The notes under the pieces are model-generated. The model was not told the origin of the DNA and ran no database searches. It saw only the letters and a list, made by a program, of their open reading frames with translations. Below are positions 5,230 through 53,951 of a DNA stretch of 64,000 bases, one piece after another (position 1 is the stretch's first letter; the number at the start of each line of letters is the position of its first letter). A program made the position numbers and the translations under genes. This DNA comes from a virus (Duplodnaviria; Caudoviricetes). Location of the stretch: IMG/VR virus record IMGVR_UViG_3300025909_000005; one strand, given 5' to 3'.

Positions 5230-5232
5230 ATA
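5227..5232 (+). promoter_or_regulatory. Late-promoter core TAAATA (formed by stop codon + ATA)
   Basis: Sits immediately upstream of the MKVSDLLE/MKVSELLE gene pair. Confidence 0.55.
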
Positions 5233-9581: not shown

Positions 9582-9588
9582 ATAAATA
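9582..9588 (+). promoter_or_regulatory. Late promoter ATAAATA, 5 nt before ATG 9594
   Basis: Consensus match directly after the terminator. Confidence 0.7.
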
Positions 9589-37900: not shown

Positions 37901-38892
37901 AAGCCCGTCATAGAGCCGGCCAGCGTGTACGTCAGGGAGTCGGGATCAAGAACGGTGAGAGTGAACTCCTCAGCGTCAGAGCCACCACCCGTGATGTCTG
38001 TGACAGACGTGTAGGCGTCGGCAACGTCCTTGAAGACGAGCGCACCAGACTCGTAGATCTCCATGTCGCTGAAGTGGCGCAGGGCCAGCGAGGAGGTCAG
38101 CAGCTCAATCTTCTCCTGAACGCCATCACGTGCCTGCACGATGTCAGGGTTTGCAGAGGCGCCCATCCAGGCCAAGAGAGCTTCGTAGCTGGTTGGCAGG
38201 TCAGGAATTGCGATGATAGCGAACAAAGCATCGAGCTCTCGCTGTACGTCTGCATCACCGCCAACGTCAGTCACCACCGTTTGGATGTCGTTCAGGATCT
38301 TCGTGATCTGGCTGATCGCGCTCAGGGGGTTGGTCGTATCGAGCGCAGCGGCTCGTGCAATGTTCGTGGCCTCGGTGATGATGCCATCCTCGTTGGACGG
38401 GATCCACAGAGGATCAAATGGGCTTGACGAGTTGCCGGTGCCTGAGTACGTCTGCTTGATCTGAAACTGGAACGAGCCGTGGCTCTGGAAGAAGTCAACC
38501 GATTCCGTCTGCGGCTCGAGCAGACCAGCCTTCTTCACGAAGACCTGGTTCACGCCAATGGCGTCGAAGCTCTTCTTGGAGTAGACGTATGGGACCGTTG
38601 GCAGGTCGGTGTTCTCGTCCTGTCCCACCGTGAAGGTTCGAGTACGCATGAACGGCGACTGAACGCGGTGTGCAGGGAACGAACGATACAGCGGGTTCGC
38701 GCCAGAGAAGTAGTTGAAGGTCCAGGCAGGGCTGATCTTTGTCTTGATCAGCAGCTTCTCTGTGATCTTGACGTTGACGTCCTCAAAGAACTGGTACTCC
38801 TCAACGATCTCCGTCAACTTGGAGTGGTACGGCTTCGTGTCGTTGATGTAGTCAACAAGACTCTGGACGTAGAGGCTGTTCTTATTTGTCAT
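34921..38892 (-). CDS. Large baseplate/tail structural protein
   Basis: 1323 aa, beta-rich with FxxGDxF repeats, inside the baseplate operon. Confidence 0.75.
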   Translation of the reverse strand: MTNKNSLYVQSLVDYINDTKPYHSKLTEIVEEYQFFEDVNVKITEKLLIKTKISPAWTFNYFSGANPLYRSFPAHRVQSPFMRTRTFTVGQDENTDLPTVPYVYSKKSFDAIGVNQVFVKKAGLLEPQTESVDFFQSHGSFQFQIKQTYSGTGNSSSPFDPLWIPSNEDGIITEATNIARAAALDTTNPLSAISQITKILNDIQTVVTDVGGDADVQRELDALFAIIAIPDLPTSYEALLAWMGASANPDIVQARDGVQEKIELLTSSLALRHFSDMEIYESGALVFKDVADAYTSVTDITGGGSDAEEFTLTVLDPDSLTYTLAGSMTGFLAFVTPGTYTSPRVSFTLTSLATPPVGQKLALTPYNKITIGTSALREQWNIIKVNPIAHDRPFYGSSHYGHIQDSSGTVGNIDLLDQTLIGDFVMTATDSTHFSVVGPTYYSVAEVGVPFNDGKLGFTLVGPFQAGDKFYFSIANIPAEVQNLDLGYGYDLDAYDNDHLTYADGTTKINFAYDGRFTDYDLTQLNLTLTQAVQDGRYFRVRALPSTSLITTKKDGTSSDFVDLDDATSGVSPDPASNAAARYGAPELELYLSTTFSVDYSDDNFLTSHHIGNVNVGESFSSSTYGISFDLPAGSKPFIAVTAADTTYPRVEGGDVFSFQVVNPLPTLVERPVGLVAARLPRLIMHSDDFFKAPEAKWTVKFDTTTSYTVSNDKGFYSSGNTIPTPGLIAAEGLSYKNDYVHFTIVPNGGIFAGDTFTFNTFDKKPSYLVHGSVTGWTKPATIGEYYWNDKIGFKLNAPVGQLFDTTNSLRTDLPLTYTIREDCPSLIYTFTKTSSGYLVQRSDINVTGFMPATGTFNDKYLSATSTGLTEDVVHLRVIDHGYQLWNSADMVILNPALPPRLPDAGDLVVVEKSEDGRALISITTSTADTSPLDLINIDPRFISTSTNSDIPLSNTSPETAILNGWLPMTDGRYDSVTSIAEYSDPTTLHVFTTAASGETIGKLQQTDATNVNWPIEFEWDEAFFTKYLPLNAQVNLVTIDNSWNELTRVRIAESLRFLIDGGPLAEDHMFEDDANISVVDTTEWSINQTLVDSFNTTIVDGPFTGFLAGYDNLPYDNETTNGFYDLGQPLTAYFLEAQELMALPSPSPTDSARLADLRDLLGDFLVNGSLSQTTLPDFLAALDADTVLTAQNFGFPEQGSAFDIVDRPSTPVATSITDSMVLLSVDNGNTFGTAGYDTGGLDSQTESTSISFIQSAPTTIDVTLPARIFQVVFTVAPQSTPTFSVLLPVQTVPLQVGAQKLAGSYTYQFSFASPTTLQIIVA

Positions 38893-39226
38893 TCTTTGCT
38901 AGTTTCGCGAGCACGTCATTGTGCTTCTGGATGGCGCGCTCCACAACCTTCAGGTCGTCCTCAAGCTTCATGGCGCGAAGCGTGTTCTTGGTGGTGTCCT
39001 TCTTTGCAAGCAGGGCCAGCTCTGACTTGATGGCCTTCTGGCGGGTCAGCAGAGGAGCAAGCGCCTTGTTCTCGCGATTGGTTACCTTGGCCGCGTGCGT
39101 TGCACGGAACCGGACCTCATCGTCCTTCATGACCTTGTAGCTGTGGCCAAGAGCCGCAGCGCCGAGCACGGTTGCTGCGAGAGTGCTGGCAAACTTGCCT
39201 TCTTCCAGGAGTTCGTTAACTTTCAT
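38882..39226 (-). CDS. Putative head-packaged protein (MKVNELLEE|G) with a hydrophobic segment
   Basis: Family leader followed by STLAATVLGAAALG. Confidence 0.6.
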   Translation of the reverse strand: MKVNELLEEGKFASTLAATVLGAAALGHSYKVMKDDEVRFRATHAAKVTNRENKALAPLLTRQKAIKSELALLAKKDTTKNTLRAMKLEDDLKVVERAIQKHNDVLAKLAKNDK

Positions 39227-39229
39227 GTC

Positions 39230-42200
39230 TTACTCGTATGTGGCTGCAGCCGTTCCAGATTGGACAACCTTGATCGAGTAAGCAGACAGACGTGATGTCT
39301 TGAAGAGATCCGTCAGCTCGTAGTTCGAGGCGACGATGTCATTCAAGGCTGCGAAGAAGATCTCATTCACCTGCGCCACCTTTGCCTGAGTCCAGATCTT
39401 GGTCATCATGTTGCGTGCTGCCACAGGATCCGCGAACCACGTGTCGCTCTGGTCAAAGTCCAGGAACGAGATGTAATCAGGAACTGGTGAGGCACCACTC
39501 GTATCTACCAAGCTGGTATTTAGGATGGTGTAGGTAATGGAAGAAATGAGCAGATCCTGTGGAGCAAGGGTTTGCTCTGGGCCGAAGCCGAACTGGGTCC
39601 GAGTTCCATTCCGTTCATCGTACAGGGAACGCGCGATTGCAGGCACCGAGTTTCCAGCGATGTCTCGACCAGCCACCGAGTCGGTGAGCTTCTGCCACAG
39701 CGCCTCGGGGATCAAGGTCTTCTGGCCTGGACGGATGAGCGTCCATTCCGTGTGCACGTTCTTGAGGTTCCACTCCTCTGGGTCATCGCGCAGCGTGAAG
39801 TTGCGGGTGAAGCGGAGCTTGAACGTGTCGTCCTTGGTGACCACGTAGGAGAGGCCAGCAATCGTGATGGCGTCGTAGACGTGCGTGACCGGGTCCATGT
39901 TCTGGAACGTCAGGAAATTGTCTGGACCGTCACGCAGTTCCTGGACAATCGACTGCACCGAGAGCGCCTTACCACGAGCTGCTGTCGACTTGTTCGAGAC
40001 CCAGAAGTAGTAGAGCGTCGACGAGAACGTGCCATCAGCGTCGCGAACAGGTAGCGAGACGTACTCGTAGTCCTGCTTGTACTGCGTCTGAACTGCGAGG
40101 TTGTCCTTGACATCTGGATCGAAGGCAAGTTCAGCAACCGTCGGCTGGTACTTGCGCGTGATGACGACGACCTGGGAACCAGCTGGAACGGAGTTCACCG
40201 TCAGGAGCTTGCCGCTGATCGTGTACGAGGCCTTGAGCTGTGCCACGCCGTTGATGTAGACCGAGGTGGAGGTCGAGTCGAAGTTCACGTCGTTGGTGAA
40301 CGTGCAGCCTGCACCGTCTGCCACAACTGTGTAGGAGATGTCGTCGTCCAGCTTCGGGTACGTGCGCTTCTTGTCAAGCAGCACAGACCAGTCGGTCCAC
40401 GTCGTGCTGTAACGGTCAACGATAGTGCCGTCGTTCAAGGTCAGAGGCGCCTTGGAGTAGGCGATGGCGTCCTGCACCTGGACAAGGCTGCCAGGAATTT
40501 CAACGTAGTCACCGACATACGGCTTCCAGGATGAGGTTGGATAGGTGCCGTCCGCGTCAAGCTCGGCCTGAGTTGGGACAGTCCAAGCACGCCAGCCGTA
40601 GAAGGTGCCAGGATCCGCACTGTCATTCGACAGAGGGCTCGTCACGCCTGCTGGGTTTGGAACAACCGCCTGGATCGTCACCGAGTTTCGTGCGTAGAGG
40701 TTTGCAGCCAGGCCGTTCACGATTGCGTCGCGAAGGTCAGTCACGTTGTAGGTACCGTCTGCCGCGATAGTCACCGTGATCAAGATGCCAAAGGCCGGCA
40801 GTTCGACCAGAATCTTCTCACCAGCCGTGTAGGTGACCTGAGCTGGAGTCGTCGTGAGGTCAGTCGAGGTAGTCGTCGTTGCGAAGTCGGTTGAGCCGTC
40901 CTCGAGTTGGGCCTTGATACCAACGGTCGTGTAGTACGAGGTCGTGACGCCGTCTGCGTCCAGGATTGGAGCCTGATCGTAGGTCGGGTAGAACGCAAGC
41001 TGACCGGTCAGGAGGTTCGTGTTGGACACGGCCACCGAGATGTTCGAGGCGATGCCGACGTTCGTCACGTCAGCAAACGTTCCACCATTCTGATCAACTA
41101 GGACCTTCGAGAACACGTCACCGACGATGTACTCGCTCATTGGCTTTGGAATGGCGTTGAAGACGTTCCAGGCACCGATGCGCATGCCGCTCGTGATGCC
41201 GATGGTGGCGAAGTCGCTGGCACCCAGAGAGACCGTCGTGCCACTGTCGTCAAACCACAGGCGACCTGCAGCTTCAAGAGTGTGGCCGCCGTTGAACGGT
41301 GGAGTCTCCTCGAAGTCGATGTTCAGTGGAACAGGTGAGTACGACCAGGCAACTGGACGCAGGCTCCAGACGCGTTCACGTTGGTACGTCTGCTGGTTGG
41401 CAACGGTGCCGGCGGCCTTCGTGTTCGGGTCCAGCGAGGCGTCACCTGCCTGGGTTGCAGCGAGGGCGTTGTACTCAGACGGTGGAACGGTCGACTCAAC
41501 CCACTCGTAGACGTCGATCGAGGCGTAGTCAGCGAGGGCACCCCAACGAGACAGTCGATCGGCAATCTCTGGGTAGATCACGTAGTCGTAGTACGGAACG
41601 TAGGCGAGGTTGCGCGTGTCAAACCAAACGCGACCGACTTCATTCGCACCCCATGGGCGTAGCGGGTCATACGAGTTGTTGTTCACGACCTGGGTCGAGA
41701 AGTTGTACTTCGCAGGGTTCAGGTTCGACGTAATGTTGATGCACTCGAGCGCCGCCGGCGTGTGCTGCCCAGTTGCTGGGTGCCAGATTGGAATCTCGGC
41801 AACGAGCTCCTCATCGACGTAGTTGAACAGCTTGACTGGGTTGAAGCGAGGACGGGCTGGACCGTAGCCAACGATCAGAGCTGGGAAGGTCGCTGAGCTG
41901 TCGATCGTCACAGTCGTGGCGTTGTTGACCGTCACGCCCGCTGGGTAGGTCAGCTGGTCAGCAATGAACGGCAGCGTGATGGTGCCTGGACCTACTGCGG
42001 CGAACGTTCCAACGACCTCAGCTGCGAAGCCAGTGCTTGGCTGGTTCAGGTCATCGTACGAGAACCAACGGTTCTCGTCGTAGTTACGAATCGTCGTGAA
42101 GGCGGGTGCGAGCGTGTCGTTGTCGAACTGGAGCTGCGTGAACTGTGTCACGGTGTCGTTAACCGACAGCTTCAGCTCAGGGAATGACTTCTGACGAGCG

Positions 42201-45200
42201 TCACCGTACTGAGCGACCTTGTAGGCCCAGTACTCGTCGATCTTCGCGTCGTCGAAGCGGTCGTTGTTCAGGTACGCGTCGATGGACATGTTCGTGCCCT
42301 TCGACTGGATCAGACCACGCCAGAAGTTGAACTGCGTCTTCTCCGAGATGTCGAGGTTGTCGAAGTACGACTTCGTGTTGAAGCCGAGGAGAGCAAGGGC
42401 GTGACGCGACGTCGTCTCATTCTCAAACGCCTTGTTCGCGTCGTAGAAGTTGCCGAAGTTGTCAGCGCTGGCCTGCATGTTCTGCTTGACCTCGTTGCCG
42501 ACCAAGAAGTGGCCGCCAAACTCTGGACGCAGCGTGTTCGTGGCCTGCTTGCGGCCGTGGAACTTGTACGTCACGACGCGAGAACCTGAGAAGGCGTCAT
42601 AGAGCAGGCCAGAGCTGGTCGATGGTTGTGCGTAGTCAGCGAAGATGAAGACGTGTTCGAACTCATCCACCTGCACGTGAGCCGAGAAGATTGGGCCCGC
42701 TGCACCAACCGAGGATTCCTGGTTGCCACGCAGCACCTTGAGGTCGTCCTTCTTGTACTTGACGCCAAGCACGTCGAAGATTCCCGGGTGACCAGACACG
42801 TCAAACAGCGGGCTGTCTACGAACTCAGACATCAGGCCCGTCTCCTGACCGAACCAGACGCGGTCCATGAAGGAGTTCACAACGTGGCCTTGACCGAGAG
42901 TGATGCCTGCGTAGCAGCGGTCAACAAACTTCTCAATCTCAAGCTGGAAGGTGCGGGTCCGACCAGTCTCGTCATCGATGTTGTAGTCACCCATCTTGTT
43001 GAACTCCCAACCCTGGTCTTCGAGGTAGGCCTCGTAACCGAACAGGAAGTTCACGACGTTCTGGATACCGGTGATCGTGAGCGGTAGGTTCGTGTGAACT
43101 GTGCCGGTCTTGACGGTTGGGTGGAGCCAGGCCAGTGAAGTGTGGGCCTTGCCCAGCGCGTAGAAGTCAACTGGATCGGTGGCCGTCGACATCGAGTAGT
43201 ACGTGATACCGAGGTGGCGTGGGTTGTAACCTTCCACGCGAAAGATCCAATCAGAGCCATCTGTTGGAGGAACGAACGTGCCGTCCGGACCAGCGCTCGT
43301 CTGACCGAACTGGGTTACCGAGATGCGGAGGCCCTGCAGCCACTCGTTGCGGGCAATCGGGTTCTTCTTGAAGATGAGCTCGTAGGCCGACTTCGAGAGG
43401 GTGTAGGAGTCGGTGAAGATCTCAAGGTCGTCAGTTGCCACGAGACCACCAGCACGGTAGCCCATGTTGACGTCCCACTCACGGAACGCTGCAACTGCGA
43501 AGCTCGAGGTCGTGTCGATCGAGACCTCACGCAGGGCGTGCGTGAACGTCTGACCGAAACCGAGGTAGCGGTACGTGGTGATTGGCACGAAGGTGGCAAC
43601 ACCGTTAGAGATCTCGAAGCGGTCACCCATGCGGAACGGCTGACCTTCGTCTTCAATCGTGAACGTGACGCCGCCTAGAGTTGCAGCCACACCGTTTTGA
43701 GCGTAGCCGATAGTGACACCGTTCTGAGTCACCGTGAAGTTCTGCTTGTGGTCGTCATCGTACGCGGTGTACGTGGCAACGATCGAGTCAGTTCCAGTGA
43801 CAGGCATGGTTGAGCGGCTGATCAGGCTAATCGCATCGCCGTGCAGGCGGAAGCGCTTGTGACCTGGCATGTTCATGTCGAAGCCGTCGTACAGGATACC
43901 GTCAGCCTCTACCCAGTTGAAGCCCCAGCAGAAGCCGAGGAACGCTAGTGGGTCAAAGCGGAACAGCGCGCGTGCCAGAGAGTAGCCATACTCGAGCGAC
44001 GTCTTCCAGGTCGTCTCAATTGGAGACGACTGGCCGTAGGAGTAACCAAGAGACGCGCCGATTGGAATGAAGTTCGTCAGCGCGTTGCCTGCATTTCCAG
44101 ACGATGGTCGAACGTACGGTGGCAAGAGACCATCGTTGGCCACGTCAACGCTGAGCTTCAGGCTTGGGTGTGCAGCTTGAACGTCGGCCCACAGTTGGCT
44201 CGACCAGATACGGGCCTGCTTGAAGATGACTGGATCGGTTGGGCCAGCAGTTGCAGTGAGCACCCACTTCGAACCCTTCCAAAGGGCGCCAGACGAGACA
44301 GTGACTACGAGCTTCTCAACGAGTGGTGTCAGGTTGCGGGTCCAGCCACCACTGTTCGCTGCCCAAATGCCGTTGTTCTCAGGAGACATCTCGTTCTGCA
44401 GGAGAACGAGGTCACCAGACACGAGCTGCACGCCGTCAATCACAGGCAGGCCGCTCAGCATGGTGATGCCAGCGTCGGTCTTCACGACTCGAACTGTTGG
44501 ACCCGTGATGTACGTTGCGTCGATCTGATCAAGGCGAATGTATGGAGTGTAGGCCGCCTGGGTGCCAGACGACAAGGAAGACCACCATGAATCATGATCA
44601 GCAAAGCCGAACAGCTTCCACGGTTCCATGTCTGGCCGCGGTGTTGGAATGACACCAGCCACCGTGGCTTGGTGTGCCATGAGGTAGTTGAACCAGCGGG
44701 CAGGAGTCGAGGACGTGTTGATTGGAACTGGACTCGTCAGCTGTGAGTAGTTCCACGTGAACGCGTTGCCAGCGTTGTAGTCAGGCGCCAGTGGGTCAAG
44801 ACCGTTCGTGGCACCAAACGAGAAGAGCTCAGCCTCAACCTCTGCCTGGAAGGCAGCGTTGCCCTCAAGCTGGCTGAAGTCAAACTTGCGGGCGTTAGGA
44901 TTGATGCCGTCGAAGAGCTTCTCCTCAACGCGAAGCATGAGCGAGTTCAGCACGTCAGCGAGGTTCGTCGCAACCCAAGGCGCGTTGATGTTCGAGACAG
45001 TGGACCAGGTGGTGCCAGTCCAGGTGAAGAGTGTCGCCGTGCTGCGCTGCAGCCAGTAGTCACCAACCGCAGGGCTCGTAGGTGCGTTCTTGTCCGACAC
45101 CACGTTGTAGGCGTACATGATGTCGCCTGGTGGGATCCACAGCTGGCCCTTGTACGGCAAAGCAGGAGGAGTGTTCGTGAACGAACCGACGGCACCAGTG

Positions 45201-47773
45201 TAGATGCCATCCGAACGTAGGATCTGGAGTGAGGTGAGGTTGCCCAGAATCGACTGGCGGAACTCATCGCTGTCCACAACCAGCGGCGACTCATGACCGT
45301 CATGGTGGACAAGCACAAGCTGGTTCAAGACGCCATCGAGACGGATCGTCGGCTGCACGAGGTCGAGAATGCCAAGCTGTGGCAGCGTGGCTGGGAAGCC
45401 CACGACCGAGGCAGTCGAGTCGTAGAGAACCGTTCGAACGTCATTGTCAGCAGCACGCACCGACTCCACGTACGCGAGCAGGGCGTCAAGGTCGTTGATG
45501 TCCGTCACTGGACCGTTGTTGGCCATGTACTGGACGATGTGCTGCTGGTAGATGTCACGGACCGTGTTCAGCGCGACCTCGTACTGACGTTCGGCAAGGT
45601 CGATCATCGAGATCGGGGTCATGTCACGCTGCATCAGCAGGGAGGCGAGCAGGGTCTGCTGCTCAGACCAGAGCTTGATCGAACCACCGAACGCGAGGTT
45701 CAGCTGGCTGTTTGGAAGCTGGTTCTGGAGGATGCCGCGGAAGTGGGAGTACAGCGTGCCTTCCAGGAGAGGAGACTGGGACTCGTTGTATGGGTTGTTG
45801 TAGAACGTGCGCGGAACCTGCCATGCACCGACGCTGTTCGTGTCAGCTTCTGGACCACCGTAGAAGTCCACGATGTTGTTGTCAGCATCGCGGAAGACGT
45901 AGCGTGGCGATTCAAGGTTGCCGACGGCGATCAGGAACGTGTCGCCTGGCGTGAATGGAATCGAGCCTGCGTTGATCGTGAACGAGATGTAGCCGTTGTT
46001 GAATGGTACGCCAACTGTAGCGATGTCGGGAACGTCAGGCATCTTAGAGCCCTGCATGCTGAACGTCGTTGACGTCTGTGCAGTGAGGGTCCAGATCTGC
46101 TGCTGTGAGAAGTTGATCGCGGCAGCGTTCGTGATCGTGCCGTTGCCAGCTCCACCGTAGTAGATCCCAGCAATCGTCGGAGAATTGTAGCCAGCGTGCC
46201 AGATCGTCTTGAGCTGGTTGCCTGCCTTGACAAACAGGAGCTGGCCATTGGCATCAGCCATGCCGTGATTGAACACGAAGTCAGCAGAGTCGTTGTTCGA
46301 CTGGAGTGGACGCTTCTGCAGGTCGATGTCAAGGGTTGCAGTTGGGTCTTCCTCGTAGAAGAAGACCGAGCTCACGAGACCAGAGTGGGTGCCATCGTAG
46401 CGGAAGAGGTCAAACATCGGAAGCTGGTTGAATTCCGTCTTGACTTGCTTGAACGCAGCACCACTGTCCGAAGGACGGCCGTTTTTGACGAAGCCATTCA
46501 ACTGCAGGTCAGAGGTGTACTCGATGATTGGACGGACGGCCTGGATGGTCGTCGAGCGGCTCAGGCCAAGACCAGCGAGGTCGTCGCCATGGACCCAGTA
46601 GTTGCCTTCCTGCCAGGAGTTCGTGTTAGAAAGGGATGGCACGCCTGTCCAGCCCGTACCACCGAAGGCAGAGGTGAAGAGCATGCCACCGTTTTGGGTA
46701 CCAGAGGTCACGTAGACTCGAGCGCCATCGGCGATGTAGGAACCAGTGTAGTCAGCGGCTCGGGCCCAGACGCCAGGTGCCACGACGTAGATGCCCGTGT
46801 CGGCTGGATTGCCGTCCTTCACGAGAACACGGTCACCAAGCTGGAGCTGCACACCGTCGATCGTCTGGTACTCGTTTAGCGACGAGACCTTGTAGAGCTT
46901 GCCCTTGACACCCTCAGTGCCGACGAACGACACGATGTAGTTGTGGGACAGGAAGGTCGGTGTAACCGTGAAGTAGTCGCCAGCGTCGAACGAGGCGGTG
47001 CCGATGACGTCACCGTTGTAGTTGATGATCGGTTCACGGGCAATGTTGAACGTGAGCAGGGTCTTGCCGCTAGACGCGAATGAGAACTGGTCGTCGTTTG
47101 TCGTGAGGTCACCGCTCCAGGTATCTGGAATGACGCCAGCTGGCTGGGGCGTAACCGTGAAGTGGGTAGGTGTGGTGAACAGCACCTTGAACGACATGGC
47201 TGGGAAGCCCGTGCCGGTCATGACAATCGAGCCCGTCGTGGCCACACGGGCGTTCAGCTTGTTCTGGTCGCCTGGACGTGGTGTCGCAATCGTGTAATAC
47301 TCTGGCAGGAGCTCAGGGTTCCAAGGCATGTCAGGGGTTGCAGCAACCGCCTTGGCCGTCCAGTAGTAGTTGAAGAAGTTCGTGAACTTGTCGAAGTCGA
47401 TCGGTGGGGCGAAGTTGTTGCCCTGCGAGTAAAGCCACTGCTGACCTGCGTCAGTGATGCCGATAGCCTCAGCCTTGCGCACGAGATCCTCAACGGTGAA
47501 GGCGAACTTCTCGGTACCGAGGGTGAACGAGATGACAGGGACGATCGAGTTGATGTCGCGCTCAACGTTCATCTGCGGGACGCGTGGCGAACGATCATCC
47601 TTGCTGGTTGGCTTGACACCAACGTAGCCGTAGAGCGGCACGCTCTCGTCATGAGTCATCTGCCGATTGAACAGGTTGTCGATCAGCGAGGTGATGACCT
47701 CGTCCCTCAGGTTCAGAGGAACGTAGTTGATGAGGTCATTGAAGGGAAGTTTGAAGTCTGGTGCTTGAGCCAT
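39230..47773 (-). CDS. Giant baseplate wedge-like structural protein
   Basis: 2847-aa ORF downstream of the gp6-like gene; contains GD[RL]VL fibre-type domains and PxxGDxW repeats. Confidence 0.75.
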   Translation of the reverse strand: MAQAPDFKLPFNDLINYVPLNLRDEVITSLIDNLFNRQMTHDESVPLYGYVGVKPTSKDDRSPRVPQMNVERDINSIVPVISFTLGTEKFAFTVEDLVRKAEAIGITDAGQQWLYSQGNNFAPPIDFDKFTNFFNYYWTAKAVAATPDMPWNPELLPEYYTIATPRPGDQNKLNARVATTGSIVMTGTGFPAMSFKVLFTTPTHFTVTPQPAGVIPDTWSGDLTTNDDQFSFASSGKTLLTFNIAREPIINYNGDVIGTASFDAGDYFTVTPTFLSHNYIVSFVGTEGVKGKLYKVSSLNEYQTIDGVQLQLGDRVLVKDGNPADTGIYVVAPGVWARAADYTGSYIADGARVYVTSGTQNGGMLFTSAFGGTGWTGVPSLSNTNSWQEGNYWVHGDDLAGLGLSRSTTIQAVRPIIEYTSDLQLNGFVKNGRPSDSGAAFKQVKTEFNQLPMFDLFRYDGTHSGLVSSVFFYEEDPTATLDIDLQKRPLQSNNDSADFVFNHGMADANGQLLFVKAGNQLKTIWHAGYNSPTIAGIYYGGAGNGTITNAAAINFSQQQIWTLTAQTSTTFSMQGSKMPDVPDIATVGVPFNNGYISFTINAGSIPFTPGDTFLIAVGNLESPRYVFRDADNNIVDFYGGPEADTNSVGAWQVPRTFYNNPYNESQSPLLEGTLYSHFRGILQNQLPNSQLNLAFGGSIKLWSEQQTLLASLLMQRDMTPISMIDLAERQYEVALNTVRDIYQQHIVQYMANNGPVTDINDLDALLAYVESVRAADNDVRTVLYDSTASVVGFPATLPQLGILDLVQPTIRLDGVLNQLVLVHHDGHESPLVVDSDEFRQSILGNLTSLQILRSDGIYTGAVGSFTNTPPALPYKGQLWIPPGDIMYAYNVVSDKNAPTSPAVGDYWLQRSTATLFTWTGTTWSTVSNINAPWVATNLADVLNSLMLRVEEKLFDGINPNARKFDFSQLEGNAAFQAEVEAELFSFGATNGLDPLAPDYNAGNAFTWNYSQLTSPVPINTSSTPARWFNYLMAHQATVAGVIPTPRPDMEPWKLFGFADHDSWWSSLSSGTQAAYTPYIRLDQIDATYITGPTVRVVKTDAGITMLSGLPVIDGVQLVSGDLVLLQNEMSPENNGIWAANSGGWTRNLTPLVEKLVVTVSSGALWKGSKWVLTATAGPTDPVIFKQARIWSSQLWADVQAAHPSLKLSVDVANDGLLPPYVRPSSGNAGNALTNFIPIGASLGYSYGQSSPIETTWKTSLEYGYSLARALFRFDPLAFLGFCWGFNWVEADGILYDGFDMNMPGHKRFRLHGDAISLISRSTMPVTGTDSIVATYTAYDDDHKQNFTVTQNGVTIGYAQNGVAATLGGVTFTIEDEGQPFRMGDRFEISNGVATFVPITTYRYLGFGQTFTHALREVSIDTTSSFAVAAFREWDVNMGYRAGGLVATDDLEIFTDSYTLSKSAYELIFKKNPIARNEWLQGLRISVTQFGQTSAGPDGTFVPPTDGSDWIFRVEGYNPRHLGITYYSMSTATDPVDFYALGKAHTSLAWLHPTVKTGTVHTNLPLTITGIQNVVNFLFGYEAYLEDQGWEFNKMGDYNIDDETGRTRTFQLEIEKFVDRCYAGITLGQGHVVNSFMDRVWFGQETGLMSEFVDSPLFDVSGHPGIFDVLGVKYKKDDLKVLRGNQESSVGAAGPIFSAHVQVDEFEHVFIFADYAQPSTSSGLLYDAFSGSRVVTYKFHGRKQATNTLRPEFGGHFLVGNEVKQNMQASADNFGNFYDANKAFENETTSRHALALLGFNTKSYFDNLDISEKTQFNFWRGLIQSKGTNMSIDAYLNNDRFDDAKIDEYWAYKVAQYGDARQKSFPELKLSVNDTVTQFTQLQFDNDTLAPAFTTIRNYDENRWFSYDDLNQPSTGFAAEVVGTFAAVGPGTITLPFIADQLTYPAGVTVNNATTVTIDSSATFPALIVGYGPARPRFNPVKLFNYVDEELVAEIPIWHPATGQHTPAALECINITSNLNPAKYNFSTQVVNNNSYDPLRPWGANEVGRVWFDTRNLAYVPYYDYVIYPEIADRLSRWGALADYASIDVYEWVESTVPPSEYNALAATQAGDASLDPNTKAAGTVANQQTYQRERVWSLRPVAWSYSPVPLNIDFEETPPFNGGHTLEAAGRLWFDDSGTTVSLGASDFATIGITSGMRIGAWNVFNAIPKPMSEYIVGDVFSKVLVDQNGGTFADVTNVGIASNISVAVSNTNLLTGQLAFYPTYDQAPILDADGVTTSYYTTVGIKAQLEDGSTDFATTTTSTDLTTTPAQVTYTAGEKILVELPAFGILITVTIAADGTYNVTDLRDAIVNGLAANLYARNSVTIQAVVPNPAGVTSPLSNDSADPGTFYGWRAWTVPTQAELDADGTYPTSSWKPYVGDYVEIPGSLVQVQDAIAYSKAPLTLNDGTIVDRYSTTWTDWSVLLDKKRTYPKLDDDISYTVVADGAGCTFTNDVNFDSTSTSVYINGVAQLKASYTISGKLLTVNSVPAGSQVVVITRKYQPTVAELAFDPDVKDNLAVQTQYKQDYEYVSLPVRDADGTFSSTLYYFWVSNKSTAARGKALSVQSIVQELRDGPDNFLTFQNMDPVTHVYDAITIAGLSYVVTKDDTFKLRFTRNFTLRDDPEEWNLKNVHTEWTLIRPGQKTLIPEALWQKLTDSVAGRDIAGNSVPAIARSLYDERNGTRTQFGFGPEQTLAPQDLLISSITYTILNTSLVDTSGASPVPDYISFLDFDQSDTWFADPVAARNMMTKIWTQAKVAQVNEIFFAALNDIVASNYELTDLFKTSRLSAYSIKVVQSGTAAATYE
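39517..39522 (-). promoter_or_regulatory. Intragenic late-promoter core (CTAAATAC)
   Basis: CTA AAT codons about 290 nt upstream of the MKVNELLE gene. Confidence 0.4.
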
Positions 47774-47798: not shown

Positions 47799-47805
47799 TA
47801 TTTAT
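47799..47805 (-). promoter_or_regulatory. Late promoter ATAAATA
   Basis: Intergenic, upstream of 47773. Confidence 0.75.
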
Positions 47806-47835: not shown

Positions 47836-49059
47836 TCAGGACTTGACTGGCTCGAAGTTCGCAAGGAACTTCGCATCGCCGACCTCAAACTTGGCGCCCT
47901 TAGTTGTCGCCTTCTTATCGAAGTAGGTGAACGGCTCATCGAATGTAAAGCCAATCCAATAAGAGCTTAGCGAGGATGTTGGGTCGACGTACTTGATCGT
48001 CACGACCTTGCCAATGGCGTTCTCTTTTTCCGTCTTGAAGCCAAGCATGTCATCCACAGGATGGTGTAGGAACACGTCACCTGTGATCTTCCACTTCTGA
48101 CCTACCTTTGGCGCCTCGTCCTTTAGCTTCGAGAGAACGCCCTCAGTAACTGGCTTTGCCTGGCCTCTCATCCACTTTGCGCCATCTTCTTCAAGGTACT
48201 CACCAAGTTTCTCAAGGTTTTCCAGAGAGCCAGTGAACGTTACAAGAGGGTAGCCGTGTTTGTCCCTGCTCGTGTGGTCTACATGAGCTTCGAGATTGTA
48301 CTCACGGGCCAGGCGATTGACGGTCTTTTCGATTCTATCGTGGTCATATCGACCGTAATCTTCTGGTCGTTGATTCGTCTGGAAGTTGAATGGGCTGAAG
48401 TTTCTAGTTTCGAACTTCCACTTGACAACCTTGTCGTAATCCTTCTTAAGGTCCTTTAGACCTTCCTTCACCTTGTTGGCCCGCTTGGCGTGCTTCCTGA
48501 AGTAGCGCTTTGCTGCCTGGGAATCCTCATCATAGTAGACGTACTCAAGTACGTCGATCAGAGCATTGTAGGTTCCCATCAACGTGAAGACGTTGCCGTT
48601 TCGATGAATGGACCGAGCACCCCAGATCTTGAACTCCTCTTCGATGTCATTGAGGTCGTAGGACGTGAAGTCAATGTCCATGAGCCACAGGTCATCATCT
48701 GAGTCGAAGTCCTTGGCCAAGTCCTTGAGCGCTTCCTGCACCTTCTTTTTCTTGACGCGCTTTGCGCCAGACTTGAAGTTGTACTCAGCTTGCCAAGCGC
48801 GTTCACCATCATCCACTACGTGGAGGAGTACGTCCATCAACCGTTCCTTGGTTCCCTCAAGCTCGTACCTGTAGCCATTGTGAGACAGCACAACGACGCC
48901 GCGCTTCTCAATCGCCTTCACGAACTTATCTTCGTTGGCCTTGTGCTTCTCGTCGTCAGCCGTGCGATCGTCATTGATGACAGCGATTCGCCACTTGTCG
49001 GCGTCATCGTAGTCCTTGGCCATGTCCTTCAGACCTTCAAGAAGTTCGGCAACTTTCAT
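47836..49059 (-). CDS. Putative four-module head-packaged polyprotein
   Basis: LLE|GLKDMAKDYD, VQE|ALKDLAKDFD, VKE|GLKDLKKDYD and VTE|GVLSKLKD junctions. Confidence 0.75.
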   Translation of the reverse strand: MKVAELLEGLKDMAKDYDDADKWRIAVINDDRTADDEKHKANEDKFVKAIEKRGVVVLSHNGYRYELEGTKERLMDVLLHVVDDGERAWQAEYNFKSGAKRVKKKKVQEALKDLAKDFDSDDDLWLMDIDFTSYDLNDIEEEFKIWGARSIHRNGNVFTLMGTYNALIDVLEYVYYDEDSQAAKRYFRKHAKRANKVKEGLKDLKKDYDKVVKWKFETRNFSPFNFQTNQRPEDYGRYDHDRIEKTVNRLAREYNLEAHVDHTSRDKHGYPLVTFTGSLENLEKLGEYLEEDGAKWMRGQAKPVTEGVLSKLKDEAPKVGQKWKITGDVFLHHPVDDMLGFKTEKENAIGKVVTIKYVDPTSSLSSYWIGFTFDEPFTYFDKKATTKGAKFEVGDAKFLANFEPVKS

Positions 49060-49394
49060 TTGATCAGCTGCTTGTCTGAGGTTACAGGCTTGGCGAATTC
49101 GTCAAAGAACTCCTTGTCTTCACCCCAGTGACGTTCGACCATGTCTAGCAGACGATAGTCCTTACCAACGAAGTGAACAAGCGGATTGCCGCCGCCCGGC
49201 CCAACGAGCTCAATCACCTTGGCCTTCACGCCACAGTCATTTGCAATGATGTCAGCGTCATGCTGCGCTACGCTCATGCTCGAGTTGTCGCTGTTCGCCA
49301 GGTCAAGGTCGATGTACCAAAGATCTCCGTACTTCCTGGCTTCGCTCTCAAGATCCTTGAGCTTACCTTCGAGGAACTGCTTGAACGTGATCAT
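49056..49394 (-). CDS. Putative head-packaged protein (MITFKQFLE|GKLKDL), paralogue of the polyprotein modules
   Basis: Leader close to the T4 IP MKTFKEF/MKTYQEFIAE; GNPLVHFVG matches GYPLVTFTG of module 3. Confidence 0.7.
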   Translation of the reverse strand: MITFKQFLEGKLKDLESEARKYGDLWYIDLDLANSDNSSMSVAQHDADIIANDCGVKAKVIELVGPGGGNPLVHFVGKDYRLLDMVERHWGEDKEFFDEFAKPVTSDKQLIK

Positions 49395-52300
49395 TTGGAT
49401 TGCCTGATGACGGTTGAAGTGAGTGCCTCGACGACGTCGATGTCAGAGATCTCTGCAGCAGATTGGAGGATCTCGTCAAAGCCGGCCTCTACGGTGAAGA
49501 GAGAACCGAACGAGTTCGTGGAGTAGACAGGGACTGGCACGACTGCAGCGACGTCTTCAGGCAGGCGCTGGTGAATCAGGGCGATGAGCTTCGTGGCGTA
49601 GAACGTGTCGCCGAAGTCCCAGTTGTCGATGTCGAAGAACGTGTTGATGACGTCGAGAACCTCTTCCTTGATGCGCTCGTCGGTCAGAGTGCCAGTCAGG
49701 GACTTCACAACCTTGAACTTGGCGCGCAGCTGTGGCTCGGCCAGACCACCAAAGAGTAGGCGGATCTTGCCAGAGTGCATGACGACCGTGTCAGAGAGCA
49801 TCTTCTTGCGAAGCAGATCGCCATAGGAGTTGCGCAGCTCGAGCGGAGTTGGAGGTGTCGGTGCGTAGACAGATGTGCCACGGACGTAGTCGATCACGTT
49901 GTTGTAGTAGCCTGAGGTCAGAACGTACGCGTCGTGAATGTTGGTTGGCGTTGGGTCGATGATGTTCGTGAACGGCGTGAAGTGCTGCCACATGAAGTCG
50001 AGACCCGTGTTGCCGCTGTCTAGAGCTGGCATGCGCTGTCGACGACCATAGACGAGTGAGTCATCAACGAAGGCGCCTGCACCCCATGTCATGCCAGCGG
50101 CGGTTGAAGCTGCAATGCCCGTCAGAGTGACAGTCGGGTTCGAGATGAGGAAGTACTCGTAGGACGGTTCAGTGCCACCCGAGAACGTCTCGTACTGCAG
50201 GAGGCGGTCAGGAACGAGGTCACCTGAGTCGTCTTCCTTGAGCAGGTCAGATGGAACGATCTGGAGCTGGTGAACGTCAAGCACACCGTCAGAGTCCTTG
50301 ACAGGACCGACGACGTCGTAGATCTGGTTCTTCTTCAGCTGAATGCCAGCTGAGTTGAAGTTCGAGCCAAGGATCTTGATGTTGTCGTAGACGACGTCCT
50401 TCGTCTCATTGTCTAGAAGCTGATCAACCGTGTTGAACCAGAAGTTCGTGTCCTCAGAACGGATCGTGAGTGCAACCTCGCGGTTGTGAACCTCGTAGCC
50501 GATGATCGTGGAGTTCTGGCGGAGCTTTCGGATGAAGATCACCCAGCTGTAGCGACGAACGGAAGGTGTGAACTTCTGGTCGTGGTACAGGGAGGAGTCA
50601 GGACCGTTGGCGAACTCAGACGTCAGGTCAGCTGCTGAGATGATTTCCCACCAGCCGTTGAGGTTGACGATGTTGTTTGGGTTGCCGTCCGAGAACAGGC
50701 GCTGCGTGACCGAACCATCTGAGTTCGTGTCAAGAATGAACGCGTCACCAGGCTGGAGTGGGTTGGTCGTTGAGGACGTGACGGTGAAGAACTCCTTAGA
50801 GCTCGTCTCACCTGGCAGCAGGATGCTGTACACGTCACCAATGGCACCAGTCGGAAATGAACCACGAAGGTTCGAGCGGACGTAGAGGGAGCCTCCATCT
50901 GCAGCGACCTCGATGGTCCAGACTTCTGCGACCGAGGTCGAGGTTGCTGGGATCGAGCTCGTGAAGCCTGAGACAGGAGTGATCGTGCCGGTACCAATGC
51001 CAGCGAAGTAGCGGTTGTAGCGGAGCGCGAAGTAGTCTTGGTCAGCGATTGGCTGGAGACCCGAGCCGATGTCGCCTGGTGGGAAGCGGTTCACGCCGTC
51101 GATCGTACGTGGCACCGTGGCCGCGTAGATCTTGGAGTCGTCCTTCGGGTTCAGGTCAGGATCCGGAATCTGAGCAAGAACTGTGCCGTCAGCGGCTTGG
51201 ACGTACTGCAGTGGCTCACCGTACCAGTGGCGGTCGATCAGGCCCTGAATGGACGTCTTCTCCTTGAGAGAGCCGTCGCCGATCAAGGTGCCAGTCGCGT
51301 CAGAGTAGATGCCGCCGCGGTTGTCCTCAATGAACTTGCGACGAGGAGCCGACACAACGCCCTGCATTCCAGGCGTGGTGGCCGAGGAGTGGAGCAGCGT
51401 ATTGATGACGCCAGAGGTGCTGAGCAGTGGCTCAATGACTGAGTCGATGAGGGCCTGGCCAGAGACAGAGGTCGTCTGGCTAGACAGAGAAAGCTGGTAC
51501 CGCATCGTGGCATCGTCACCGAAGAGCTTGACGTTCTCGTAGGTTCCAGAGGCGTCGTTCCAGTCGATGTACTTCGGCTGACCTGCAAAGGTGCGGTTGA
51601 TCGTGTTCAGGCGGAGGATCGATGGGTCCTCAAGCAGCAGCGTGTTGTAGTCCTGTCCGTTGACCATGCGGTCTTGGACGTAGAAGCTGCCAGGCATCGA
51701 CTGACGAATATGCTCGATCGTTTCAGTTGCCGAGCCATTCTGCAGGGTCGTCGTCAGGCTGAACGTCATCGAGCAGGACTCGGTGTTGTTCAGCGTGGAG
51801 GTGTACGAGAAGTTGAACGGTACGTTCTGAACCTTGTTCTTCTGGACAACGATCGAGCGGTTCGCCGACTGACGCATCCAGAACCGGAACAGGCCCTGAG
51901 GAATGTCCGAGAAGTCACCGTCACCGAAGATCAAAGTGATCTTGTCATTCTCACCCGTGTCAACTTCAAACTTCTTACGCGTGTTGCGGATCGAGTTGAA
52001 GACGAGGTTCTCAGAGAGCGTGTCAACCTGTGTCCAGCGTTCCGAGATGTTGGAGTTCGAGTCAAGCTTCTGAACCCAGATGTCCGTGTGGTTGACGTTC
52101 GTTGGGTCGAAGTCGAGGCGACGGTCAGGCAGAGCGTCAGCGATGTTGTAGTCGATGCGTGTCAGGGCACCCTGCTTCACGAAGCCAAGGAAGCCGGTGT
52201 AGTCAGAGCCATCACCGATACCGTCGTTCGCGTAGATGATCGAGAGCGGGGAGGTCAGGTCTGGTTCACGCTCGAACGGACCGTTCGAGTCGATATCAGC

Positions 52301-52936
52301 GGGCACGACCTCCATTGGGTAGGAGTCTTGACCGGCCTGAGCCGTGAATGGGAAGACGCCGTTCGTGAAGGAGCCAGAAGTGTTGCGCAGACCGTAGAGG
52401 TCCATGACAACGTCACCAATCTGGAAGGTCTTGGAGGGTTGACCGAAGCGGGTGTTCAGGACGCGGTTCATCACGAGGATGAACTGCTCCTTCCAGTTCG
52501 AGTTGTTCGGGTCGTTCCACTTGATTGTCAGACCAGCCAGGTCGGTGCCACGTGAGTCGACGACGCGTTCGGTGGTCGAGACGGTGTTGAACTTGATCAG
52601 GCCACGAACAGGAATGTTGCGGGTTGGCTTGTACGAGACGAGCTTGGCAAGGCGGAGGATCGACTGCTTACGCTGAGCAGTGGTCACGAAGTTCTCGTGA
52701 GCCATCATGTCGACGCGATAGGCCAGCTGCTCAGCGACGTAGGCGAACGACTCGATCAGGGCAATGAACTCGGACGACTCGATGTAGTCGTTGAAGACCT
52801 CTGGGTAGTAGGTCTTGGTGTAGTCGATCAGCGACTGCTTGATGCTGTCAAAGTCATATGAGACGAAGCTGACCTCGCTGAAGGCCTGGTAGATTCGATC
52901 CCAGGTCTCGGCCGAGTAAGTGGTACGGAGTGCCAT
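49391..52936 (-). CDS. gp6: Baseplate wedge protein (T4 gp6-like)
   Basis: YDFDSIKQSL...AYRVD..AHENF..TAQRKQSILRLAKLVSYKP N-terminal signature; VNGQDY. Confidence 0.88.
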   Translation of the reverse strand: MALRTTYSAETWDRIYQAFSEVSFVSYDFDSIKQSLIDYTKTYYPEVFNDYIESSEFIALIESFAYVAEQLAYRVDMMAHENFVTTAQRKQSILRLAKLVSYKPTRNIPVRGLIKFNTVSTTERVVDSRGTDLAGLTIKWNDPNNSNWKEQFILVMNRVLNTRFGQPSKTFQIGDVVMDLYGLRNTSGSFTNGVFPFTAQAGQDSYPMEVVPADIDSNGPFEREPDLTSPLSIIYANDGIGDGSDYTGFLGFVKQGALTRIDYNIADALPDRRLDFDPTNVNHTDIWVQKLDSNSNISERWTQVDTLSENLVFNSIRNTRKKFEVDTGENDKITLIFGDGDFSDIPQGLFRFWMRQSANRSIVVQKNKVQNVPFNFSYTSTLNNTESCSMTFSLTTTLQNGSATETIEHIRQSMPGSFYVQDRMVNGQDYNTLLLEDPSILRLNTINRTFAGQPKYIDWNDASGTYENVKLFGDDATMRYQLSLSSQTTSVSGQALIDSVIEPLLSTSGVINTLLHSSATTPGMQGVVSAPRRKFIEDNRGGIYSDATGTLIGDGSLKEKTSIQGLIDRHWYGEPLQYVQAADGTVLAQIPDPDLNPKDDSKIYAATVPRTIDGVNRFPPGDIGSGLQPIADQDYFALRYNRYFAGIGTGTITPVSGFTSSIPATSTSVAEVWTIEVAADGGSLYVRSNLRGSFPTGAIGDVYSILLPGETSSKEFFTVTSSTTNPLQPGDAFILDTNSDGSVTQRLFSDGNPNNIVNLNGWWEIISAADLTSEFANGPDSSLYHDQKFTPSVRRYSWVIFIRKLRQNSTIIGYEVHNREVALTIRSEDTNFWFNTVDQLLDNETKDVVYDNIKILGSNFNSAGIQLKKNQIYDVVGPVKDSDGVLDVHQLQIVPSDLLKEDDSGDLVPDRLLQYETFSGGTEPSYEYFLISNPTVTLTGIAASTAAGMTWGAGAFVDDSLVYGRRQRMPALDSGNTGLDFMWQHFTPFTNIIDPTPTNIHDAYVLTSGYYNNVIDYVRGTSVYAPTPPTPLELRNSYGDLLRKKMLSDTVVMHSGKIRLLFGGLAEPQLRAKFKVVKSLTGTLTDERIKEEVLDVINTFFDIDNWDFGDTFYATKLIALIHQRLPEDVAAVVPVPVYSTNSFGSLFTVEAGFDEILQSAAEISDIDVVEALTSTVIRQSK

Positions 52937-52961: not shown

Positions 52962-52967
52962 TATTTA
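52962..52967 (-). promoter_or_regulatory. Late-promoter core TAAATA (stop codon + ATA)
   Basis: 25 nt upstream of the gp6-like start. Confidence 0.55.
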
Positions 52968-53207
52968 CAGCGACACGAATTCGCCATCGGTTAGGTATCC
53001 GTGCCAGCCACAGCAGCGCTGAAGCAGCGAAGGCGTCAGAGTTGGCTTCTCTTCGTTACCGTTCCAGGTCCAGCCGTCATTGAACTCCTTGTCGATTGGA
53101 ACGTAGGAGTCGTCCCCACAGCCAGGACAGTCAAAGGCCACGCCACCAGGCCGGCCATCAGGATACTTCCGAATGGCCCATCCGTTTGGTCGCGGTTCCT
53201 TCCTCAT
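52965..53207 (-). CDS. Small Cys/His protein (DUF6527-like)
   Basis: CPGC...WNGNEEKPTLTPSLL..CCGWHGYLTDG pattern. Confidence 0.6.
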   Translation of the reverse strand: MRKEPRPNGWAIRKYPDGRPGGVAFDCPGCGDDSYVPIDKEFNDGWTWNGNEEKPTLTPSLLQRCCGWHGYLTDGEFVSL

Positions 53208-53560
53208 GCAGTGGCGAACTCGAGGCGCAGGGTGTCCACGATTCCCAGTTCGATGTAGCGAAGGTCAAGAACAGCCACGATGGCGTTGTTCTCAGGAAGG
53301 GCCATGACAGCGATGTCAATAAGCTGAACGCGAGGGTCGTAGTCGACGACCTCCCGCAGGTCTGACTCAACGTCCTTTAGTGTGAGCTGGTCCAGAGGTT
53401 CAAAGGCGATCAGTGGGATGCGCGTGCCAAAGCCAGGCATCATGACGCGCTCGCCCTTGAGAGTGTAGATGTGGTTTAGGAGGTCTCGGTTGATGAGCTC
53501 TGCGCCCTTCATGCCGAAGCCTTTCTTCGCCTTGGTGGAGAAGCCGAGGTACTTACTCAT
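53204..53560 (-). CDS. gp25: Baseplate wedge subunit (gp25-like)
   Basis: DLLNHIYTLKGERVMMPGFGTRI...FEP...YDPRV; start re-assigned to ATG 53560. Confidence 0.9.
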   Translation of the reverse strand: MSKYLGFSTKAKKGFGMKGAELINRDLLNHIYTLKGERVMMPGFGTRIPLIAFEPLDQLTLKDVESDLREVVDYDPRVQLIDIAVMALPENNAIVAVLDLRYIELGIVDTLRLEFATA

Positions 53561-53951
53561 CAAGTTCCCTAATATTGATGCGAACACGATTGGTGGACTC
53601 TGGTTTGCCTGTGTCGAAGTTGAAGGGGTTCCAAGAAGCAAACTCATGTAGGCCCAAGTTCGTTGACTTTGCCTCAATAGTCTTGCATAGCTTCGTCATG
53701 TTCCTGGCAACTTCCAGGTCATGTGCTCGATTTTGATCGTCATCCTCGATCGGGCCCGGCGAGGGGTCCCACTCAGGCACCTTCAGCGTCAAGTAGGAGT
53801 AACCGTCCTTATCGGGCTTTGTCAGCCCGAGGAACTTGTAACCAGGACCGAAGTTCAGTCTCTTAAGGAGGTCGTTGAAGATCGGAAGCTTCGTCTTCGG
53901 TATTGAAGCCTTGAGCTTTGCCAGGTCCTCAAGAAGTTCGGTGACTTTCAT
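53553..53951 (-). CDS. Putative head-packaged protein (MKVTELLE|D)
   Basis: Family leader; inserted between the gp5-like and gp25-like genes with overlaps at both ends. Confidence 0.62.
   Translation of the reverse strand: MKVTELLEDLAKLKASIPKTKLPIFNDLLKRLNFGPGYKFLGLTKPDKDGYSYLTLKVPEWDPSPGPIEDDDQNRAHDLEVARNMTKLCKTIEAKSTNLGLHEFASWNPFNFDTGKPESTNRVRINIRELDE

Follow-up and report, generated by a model that had tools for sequence, protein, structure and literature searches.

A putative late protein of an uncultured jumbo myovirus built as a candidate chain of T4 internal-protein-like cargo units

Genes at the locus

The window analysed here is a stretch of 64,000 nucleotides (nt) from IMG/VR record IMGVR_UViG_3300025909_000005, whose source is an uncultured jumbo myovirus found in rhizosphere (soil) metagenomes, with a longest listed contig of 376,619 bp. 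Two small adjacent genes, here called U and P, lie on the minus strand among late genes for baseplate and fibre proteins; P encodes a 407-amino-acid (aa) chain that repeats its own N-terminal motif internally, and U a 112-aa protein resembling one unit of that chain. Both are located between the genes of a baseplate wedge subunit and a giant virion protein, and more baseplate genes are found upstream of the wedge gene. The four genes are as follows.

49391-52936: baseplate wedge subunit, gp6-like (phrog_10646, E 2e-254)
49056-49394, minus strand: U, 112-aa free-standing module with leader MITFKQFLE↓G, a KLKDL helix and a small alpha/beta core (the arrow marks a proposed cut)
47836-49059, minus strand: P, 407-aa chain, as given in the open reading frame (ORF) list
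39230-47773: giant virion protein of 2847 aa, directly beyond P after a 62-nt gap

The U and P genes overlap by 4 nt, as do U and the stop of the wedge gene, and both are translationally coupled to the wedge gene, which stands behind a TAAATA sequence. The G+C content of U and P is 0.51, versus 0.56 for the window and 0.57-0.58 for the adjacent genes. In the phages RsoM2USA (a Ralstonia phage whose wedge protein is 42% identical to that of the window), XacN1 and PA5oct, the giant gene directly follows the wedge gene with no U/P pair there; U and P thus represent an insertion in the present lineage. The head genes, including the phage's own prohead protease gene, are outside the window.

Organization of the P chain

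The original prediction, made from the sequence of the window, described P as four modules joined by repeated protease-site-like junctions. Our analysis identified the underlying aliphatic-x-Glu↓(Gly/Ala)-LKD motif at exactly the codons reported there, as LLE↓GLKDMAKDYD (E8), VQE↓ALKDLAKDFD (E109), VKE↓GLKDLKKDYD (E199) and, in a weakened form, VTE↓GVLSKLKD (E306). The basic stretches KKKK, KRANK and AKP before the internal junctions (the seams) were likewise found, and the module lengths are indeed 101, 90, 107 and 101 aa. The parts of P, all on the minus strand, are the following.

49036-49059: leader MKVAELLE, residues 1-8, with the proposed cut after E8
48733-49035: module 1, residues 9-109, with the basic linker KRVKKKK and then VQE↓A at its end
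48463-48732: module 2, residues 110-199, with KRANK and then VKE↓G at its end
48142-48462: module 3, residues 200-306, with QAKP and then VTE↓G at its end
47839-48141: module 4, residues 307-407, with a weak junction (GVLSKLKD) and a distinct, beta-rich, poorly modelled body

The proposal that all four modules are distantly alike holds for the first three only. The repetition goes beyond chance. Module 1 shares 36% identity with module 2 over 98 aa; modules 1-3 can be aligned to one another and to U, with which they share the order of secondary-structure elements, while the body of module 4 could not be aligned and has nothing but the weak junction in common with the rest. In an alignment of nine module sequences, including U and modules 1-3, the residues E, L, K and D of the motif and one C-terminal Ala are invariant. 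The interpretation of U as a free-standing module was borne out, and its likeness to module 3 (GNPLVHFVG...FAKPVT in U, GYPLVTFTG...QAKPVT in module 3) is real.

Within P, a hydrophobic residue, any residue and Glu followed by Gly, Ala, Ser or Thr occurs at the leader and the three seams only; 1.8 such sites are expected from shuffled sequences. Five internal seams can be compared, namely the three of P, one in the second chain encoded by ORF 5598 of the window and one in the related contig L019 (both described below). Numbering positions from the proposed cut, all five have Val at P3, Glu at P1 and Gly or Ala at P1', while P2 is free (Q, K, T, N or G); this pattern with a varying P2 would be expected for a site of a T4-type protease. 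If the leader is included, P3 is Val or Leu at all sites of P. The body of module 2 is found behind an internal seam in P, behind the leader MKVAELLE in homologue P0002 and contig L019, and behind MRFKQFLE in the distant free-standing homologue P0003; the seam Glu is therefore the positional equivalent of the leader Glu. The seams have the appearance of protease sites that were kept. We also considered internal translation starts at these positions and rejected them, since Val is encoded by GTG at only two of the five seams and no clear ribosome-binding site was found at any of them.

Natural variation among relatives

Homologues of P are extremely rare. An exhaustive HMMER search of 1.84 billion representatives retrieved only P0002 and P0003, and profile and word searches added only P0004 to P0007; no match was obtained by blastn and tblastn against 50,697 phage records, nor in a search of IMG/VR. 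P0004 (99% identity) and P0005 (47-50%) are orthologues of U, and P0003, a free-standing protein of 110 aa, is related to module 2 (33% identity) and starts with MRFKQFLE↓GLKDM.

The original prediction called for a comparison of module number across relatives, and this comparison revealed a polymorphism. In six rhizosphere contigs of about 95% DNA identity, the order wedge-U-P-giant is kept and P has 306 aa, module 1 being absent as an exact 303-nt (101-codon) indel at the junction. In this shorter form, the leader of module 1 continues, inside the repeated motif, into the body of module 2, so that module 2 comes first (P0002, L019). The four-module form was seen in an independent sequencing run, X2, and run X3 contains the four-module form together with a joint that skips exactly 303 nt, which indicates that the four- and three-module forms coexist in nature. 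The amino acid identities between the window and one of the related contigs, L016, differ among segments.

Wedge: 99.5%
U: 99.1%
Module 2: 92.5%
Module 3: 98.1%
Module 4: 76.0%, the most variable module
Giant protein: 99.3%

In contig L019, the C-terminus of the wedge protein is 100% identical to that of the window, and U is swapped for an allele of about 50% identity that starts with ITFKQFLE↓GLKDLAK. The next seam of this contig, RANRANQVGE↓GLGD, keeps Val-x-Glu-Gly with LKD changed to LGD. Conservation of the Glu, on which the original prediction had made its proposal depend, extends to every homologue seen, as does that of the aliphatic P3 and the small P1' residue. Additionally, a contig of run X3 skips or replaces 119 nt within module 4 (window positions 47916-48036), a region where the relatives show an amino acid difference of 24%; distinct alleles of module 4 seem to exist.

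The variation among relatives (the indel, the alleles, P0003 and ORF 5598) leads us to conclude that each module is a unit of its own, that the seam acts as a joint for recombination, and that the two leader types are interchangeable before the same GLKD helix, as seen in P0003 and P0005. The four-versus-three polymorphism and the allele swap of the neighbouring gene between identical flanks mark the locus as a candidate fast-evolving site of host interaction.

Structure models and family searches

Using AlphaFold2 (AF2) with a nine-row alignment, U was modelled with a predicted local distance difference test score (pLDDT) of 82, as a helix (residues 4-21) followed by a beta-alpha-beta-beta-alpha-alpha core. 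Modules 1-3 and U have a common order in the AF2 models, an N-terminal helix and then strand-helix-strand-strand-helix, with the N-terminal 20 residues or so outside the core fold. These models suggest that modules 1-3 and U have one small alpha/beta fold in common and that module 4 differs. The AF2 model of full-length P was poor (pLDDT 46) and was used solely for the order of secondary-structure elements; confidence was low around the seams (residues 81-122 and 194-212) and from residue 305 through module 4, for which pLDDT was below 35. The linkers were modelled as disordered and the modules as separate small domains, and the ESM Atlas model of P had a predicted template modelling (TM) score of 0.27, which fits the expectation for beads on a string.

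The structure searches that the original prediction proposed gave no informative fold match; with Foldseek, no PDB entry was matched at E <= 1e-3. The ESM Atlas gave only a generic ferredoxin-like or KH-like resemblance. In BFVD, the Foldseek matches were weak (E 2e-4 to 6e-3, TM 0.5-0.7) and led to uncharacterised small proteins from T4-like and jumbo phages; among them, a protein of Erwinia phage Yoloswag and the '8.8 kDa protein in frd-Gp32 intergenic region' are small alpha/beta proteins with a weakly similar core fold and no sequence similarity. Pfam and PHROG searches with the whole of P, each module and six other leader ORFs assigned no family, the sole weak match being that of U to phrog_5922 (E 0.006); no peptidase domain and no recognisable effector domain was found in P or its modules by these searches.

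The leader on other genes of the window

The leader pattern MK(V/L)xELLE has six matches in the DNA of the window, each starting an ORF, versus 0.00 expected, and only one match in the approximately 1.0 Mb of RsoM2USA, XacN1 and PA5oct together. In these three phages, searches for the E(G/A)LKD helix and for the MK(V/L)xELLE leader gave matches at chance level only. A six-frame scan of the window located the extended E↓GLKD motif on two further genes, ORFs 5598 and 25290, and the bare leader, as MK(V/L)x(D/E)L(L/H)E, opens four more, at 5257, 9594, 39226 and 53951. The leader-bearing ORFs other than U and P are as follows.

5257-5601, plus strand: 114-aa ORF with the leader alone (MKVSDLLE)
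5598-6761, plus strand: 387-aa second chain, starting MKVSELLE↓GLKDIAAELDD, with the internal junction AKKPKVNE↓ALKDLASLAD at E174
9594-10013, plus strand: 139-aa ORF with leader MKLKDLHE↓A, with ATAAATA directly in front
25290-25679, minus strand: 129-aa single module with a different body, starting MKLDELLE↓GLKDLSKDYDE
38882-39226, minus strand: 114-aa ORF with leader MKVNELLE, then a hydrophobic stretch
53553-53951, minus strand: 132-aa ORF with leader MKVTELLE, among baseplate genes

The eight leader ORFs of the window carry unrelated orphan bodies. Their leader copies differ at synonymous sites, which indicates that the peptide and not the mRNA is under selection. ORF 5598 encodes a two-module chain inside the replication block, with an exonuclease and a primase on either side. 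Compared with its 92%-identical homologue P0007, 27 of the 30 differences fall after the seam, and the second module evolves about seven times faster than the first.

In phage T4, TAAATA is the core of the late promoter TATAAATA. In the window, (A)TAAATA is found about 5-30 nt upstream of many coding-strand starts, among them those of the wedge and giant genes and of ORFs 5257, 9594, 17073, 27687, 34883 and 59799, and ATAAATA occurs 11 times versus about three expected from base composition; (A)TAAATA is probably the T4-like late promoter of this phage. The copies that concern the genes discussed here are the following.

52962-52967, minus strand: TAAATA, about 25 nt upstream of the wedge gene, heading the coupled run wedge, U, P
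47799-47805, minus strand: ATAAATA, in the 62-nt gap after P, about 25 nt upstream of the giant gene
5227-5232: TAAATA, heading the leader gene pair 5257/5598
9582-9588: ATAAATA, directly before leader ORF 9594

Leader genes 5257/5598 and 9594, which sit among replication genes, have TAAATA motifs of their own.

Comparison with T4 and other known systems

The internal proteins of T4 and their capsid-targeting sequence are textbook knowledge. The likeness that the original prediction drew between these leaders and the N-termini of U and P held when compared with the T4 record, from which the following sites are listed.

ipII and ipIII (read from NC_000866): MKTYQEFIAE↓A
gp24: MAKINELLRE↓S
gp22: MLKEQLIAE↓A
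gp21: MNEPQLLIE↓T
gp67: MEGLIE↓A
gp68: MLLIPE↓T
gp23: FLTE↓A, at residue 65

Cutting by gp21 at these T4 sites is established, the leader of the internal proteins is sufficient for capsid targeting, and the internal proteins of T-even phages present varied bodies behind a conserved capsid-targeting sequence (PMC3012670). In T4 IPI, IPII, IPIII and Alt, a small residue comes directly after the hydrophobic-x-Glu end of a short leader, and MITFKQFLE↓G of U is a close look-alike of MKTYQEFIAE↓A. MKVAELLE↓G of P is a looser match and nearer to the N-terminus of T4 gp24. The seams V-Q-E↓A, V-K-E↓G and V-T-E↓G of P and V-N-E↓A of ORF 5598 fit the pattern aliphatic-x-Glu↓small with a free P2. As in T4, where small, diverse, fast-changing bodies stand behind a conserved leader, the divergence of P and U is module-wise against flanks of 99-100% identity: module 1 is subject to an indel, module 4 is 76% and module 2 92% identical, and the U orthologue is 50% identical, a hypervariability like that of the T4 internal-protein loci. 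The ipII and ipIII genes of T4 also lie outside the head cluster, like those of P and U.

Unlike the T4 internal proteins, the present family has several units in one reading frame with leader-derived internal seams; its conserved motif extends about 10 residues beyond the cut; and it uses a second leader type, MK(V/L)xELLE. The bodies of P and U have no sequence relation, and no clear fold relation, to IPI-III. The major capsid protein of RsoM2USA (L023 4787-6022) and T4 gp23 (L015 2946-4511) contain (A/P)LLE↓G(L/E) near propeptide residue 16-18. This element resembles the ELLE↓GL of the family, and the leader may imitate an element of the capsid precursor.

Polyvalent proteins are multidomain proteins for which packaging, delivery alongside the DNA and, in some cases, proteolytic release have been proposed (Iyer et al. 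2017, PMC5512222). P is like them in having several independent domains per polypeptide and a gene among late and virion genes (wedge, giant). Polyvalent proteins, however, are large, have recognisable enzyme or effector domains and are proposed to be processed by their own MPTase, whereas P is small, all its modules are orphans and its proposed cutter is the prohead protease. The two or more recognisable conflict or effector domains (MuF, MPTase, ART, nucleases and others) by which polyvalent proteins are told were not found in P by Pfam, PHROG and fold searches. In phiKZ-like phages, the prohead protease cuts single head and ejection proteins after Glu at several sites (SPN3US gp53 and gp54; PMC10052503). 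The multiple cuts of the SPN3US type destroy long propeptides and leave one mature fragment, whereas in P each piece would be a folded domain; the SPN3US-type motif also has a small P3 (AQE, ARE; PMC10052503), whereas P3 in P is Val or Leu.

The tag in virions of a cultured relative

In RsoM2USA, four ORFs begin with M.TFKQFL.E, and the phage has a prohead protease of the Peptidase_S77 type (103 bits). Ten proteins of purified RsoM2USA virions have been identified by sodium dodecyl sulfate polyacrylamide gel electrophoresis and liquid chromatography-tandem mass spectrometry (PMC8504454). Two of the four tag ORFs, ORF89 (253 aa) and ORF132 (674 aa), are among those ten (PMC8504454), an overlap with a chance of about 0.003 by a rough estimate based on 486 ORFs. 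This supports the xTFKQFLxE tag as a mark of virion proteins in this clade; the N-termini of ORF89 and ORF132 are not mapped. Between the prohead protease and scaffold genes of RsoM2USA lies ORF381 (L023 3520-3747; record 260019-260246), of 75 aa, which ends ...RLGLRE↓SEQITFKDFIIAE↓GET. This is a capsid-targeting-like motif near the C-terminus and may reflect either an incorrectly called frame or a further internal tag.

Interpretation

Based on the anatomy of the chain, the population variation, the likeness to T4 and the RsoM2USA proteomics, a T4-style family of capsid cargo is the best reading of these genes. U and P most likely belong to a lineage-specific arsenal of late genes with a T4-style N-terminal tag. 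That P itself is packaged in the head and cut internally, as a chain of fused late cargo units like the internal proteins of T4, is what we tentatively favour, while giving it somewhat less than an even chance. According to this proposal, the tag, a short amphipathic leader ending in hydrophobic-x-Glu before a small residue, would bring the protein into the core of the assembling prohead, where a T4-type prohead protease would take it off after the Glu. P would represent four fused cargo units whose seams retain, after a flexible linker rich in Lys, the Val-x-Glu↓Gly/Ala portion of the tag required by the protease. After a single loading of the chain, cutting would yield four products, each about 10-12 kDa in size and with the (G/A)LKD helix at its start. 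The conserved seam would double as a site of homologous recombination at which modules may be gained, lost and swapped among related phages. Packaging of P and U, cutting at any of the sites, delivery to the host and an anti-defence role are what we infer from the above.

Several observations weigh against this proposal. The phage is uncultured and was read from a rhizosphere contig alone, and the P gene is in a baseplate operon and not in the head operon. Most of the conserved (G/A)LKDLxKDYD sits downstream of the proposed cut and would stay on every product, so that a removable address does not explain it; AF2 gives the leader and LKD as a single continuous helix spanning the proposed cut site. 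Taking the motif as the first helix of each unit accounts for it better than a protease or targeting role does; alternatively, it may serve a second function. The seams could be inert relics of the fusion of separately tagged genes. All seams have Val at P3, whereas the T4 N-terminal sites compared have Leu or Ile, and other members of the family have hydrophobic-x-E-small sites within their bodies. In some leader ORFs, the leader Glu is followed by an acidic residue (Asp or Glu), and ORF 38882-39226 (MKVNELLEE) goes on as a hydrophobic, Ala/Gly-rich segment that looks membrane-spanning, odd for capsid cargo; the leader may therefore not always mean packaging. Lastly, because MK(V/L)xELLE is nearly absent from the cultured relatives, the RsoM2USA evidence applies directly to no more than the xTFKQFLxE tag of U. 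The cargo-chain interpretation offered originally thus stands as regards module autonomy, varying module number, the conserved Glu, the likeness to T4 and the virion tag in RsoM2USA, and is left wanting by a removable leader that does not account for the retained motif.

Some of these points would agree with proteins that are not packaged at all. U, P and the other leader genes may encode small, lineage-specific late proteins that share an amphipathic N-terminal helix for docking, oligomerisation or translation start, with P as a tandem-domain member. Conservation running 10-12 residues past the Glu, modelled as one helix, suits such a role, as do leader genes scattered over the replication, lysis and baseplate regions, the several leader ORFs that are acidic after the Glu, the one with a hydrophobic segment, and a leader, MK(V/L)xELLE, that has no experimentally studied counterpart in the relatives. 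Nevertheless, the synonymous differences point to selection on the peptide rather than the mRNA, the leader genes of the replication block have a late-promoter-like motif of their own, the two leader types, one of which closely matches the proven T4 capsid-targeting sequence, are interchangeable before the GLKD helix, and proteins bearing the xTFKQFLxE tag are present in RsoM2USA virions. We consider this explanation unlikely, though a serious one.

It is also rather unlikely that P is packaged by its N-terminal tag and loses the tag alone, so that it would remain an uncut four-domain 'polyvalent' virion protein whose seams are fusion relics and recombination sites. The alignment of the seams with the leaders of free-standing homologues is what fused tagged genes would produce, the natural 303-nt indel occurs at a seam, and unprocessed packaged multidomain proteins have a precedent in the virion RNA polymerase of phage N4 (PMC5512222). 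However, the MKVAEL half of the leader has been lost at every seam, yet Val-x-Glu-Gly/Ala has been kept in five independent seams with P2 free; Lys-rich, low-confidence linkers precede each seam, and the chain has no other hydrophobic-x-E-small site.

The retained motif could be accommodated by a two-part signal, which we regard as distinctly improbable, in which the removable leader serves entry into the prohead and the retained (G/A)LKDLxKDYD helix is a second address on each released unit, for instance for ordered exit via portal and tail, for docking on DNA or core, or for a common host target. The phage would then mass-produce interchangeable 'cartridges', the seam being protease site, address and recombination joint at once.

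Variable genes are common near those of receptor-binding proteins, and U and P lie between the gp6-like wedge and giant genes and appear to be co-transcribed with the former, but a role as baseplate or fibre accessories (assembly chaperones, or decoration of the 2847-aa protein with the repeats binding repeated sites) is very improbable, given that the pair is absent from this position in RsoM2USA, XacN1 and PA5oct, that the modules vary next to a giant protein conserved at 99.3%, and that the same leader and seam are found on genes at unrelated loci.

Returning to cargo that is loaded and cut, its components have been described separately, as T4 internal proteins, polyvalent proteins (PMC5512222) and multiple prohead-protease cuts per head protein (PMC10052503); our literature search found no paper on tagged cargo units joined into a chain by seams that derive from the leader. 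New here are the natural four-versus-three polymorphism exactly at a seam, the free-standing homologues behind either leader and the published proteomic link in a cultured relative. If P is indeed loaded and cut, the T4-type head would be a general loader, in which one tag imports several proteins and the population shuffles cassettes at a fixed seam, and the internal-protein paradigm of T4 would extend from single tagged proteins to concatenated cargo. It would also provide a sequence rule for predicting the injected proteins of uncultured jumbo phages, in which most genes are orphans. The T4 capsid-targeting sequence is already used for loading single proteins; tag and seam together could serve to load phage heads with several foreign proteins, all encoded by one construct.

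Other genes in the window

The 129-aa leader ORF at 25290-25679 (minus strand) is flanked by a 528-aa M23-peptidase/endolysin-like protein at 23703-25289 (minus strand) and a Rz-like spanin candidate at 26104-26574 (minus strand). Between baseplate genes, an 80-aa ORF at 52965-53207 (minus strand) with a match to phrog_15183 contains the paired Cys motifs CPGCG ... CCGWHG and may encode a small zinc-binding protein.

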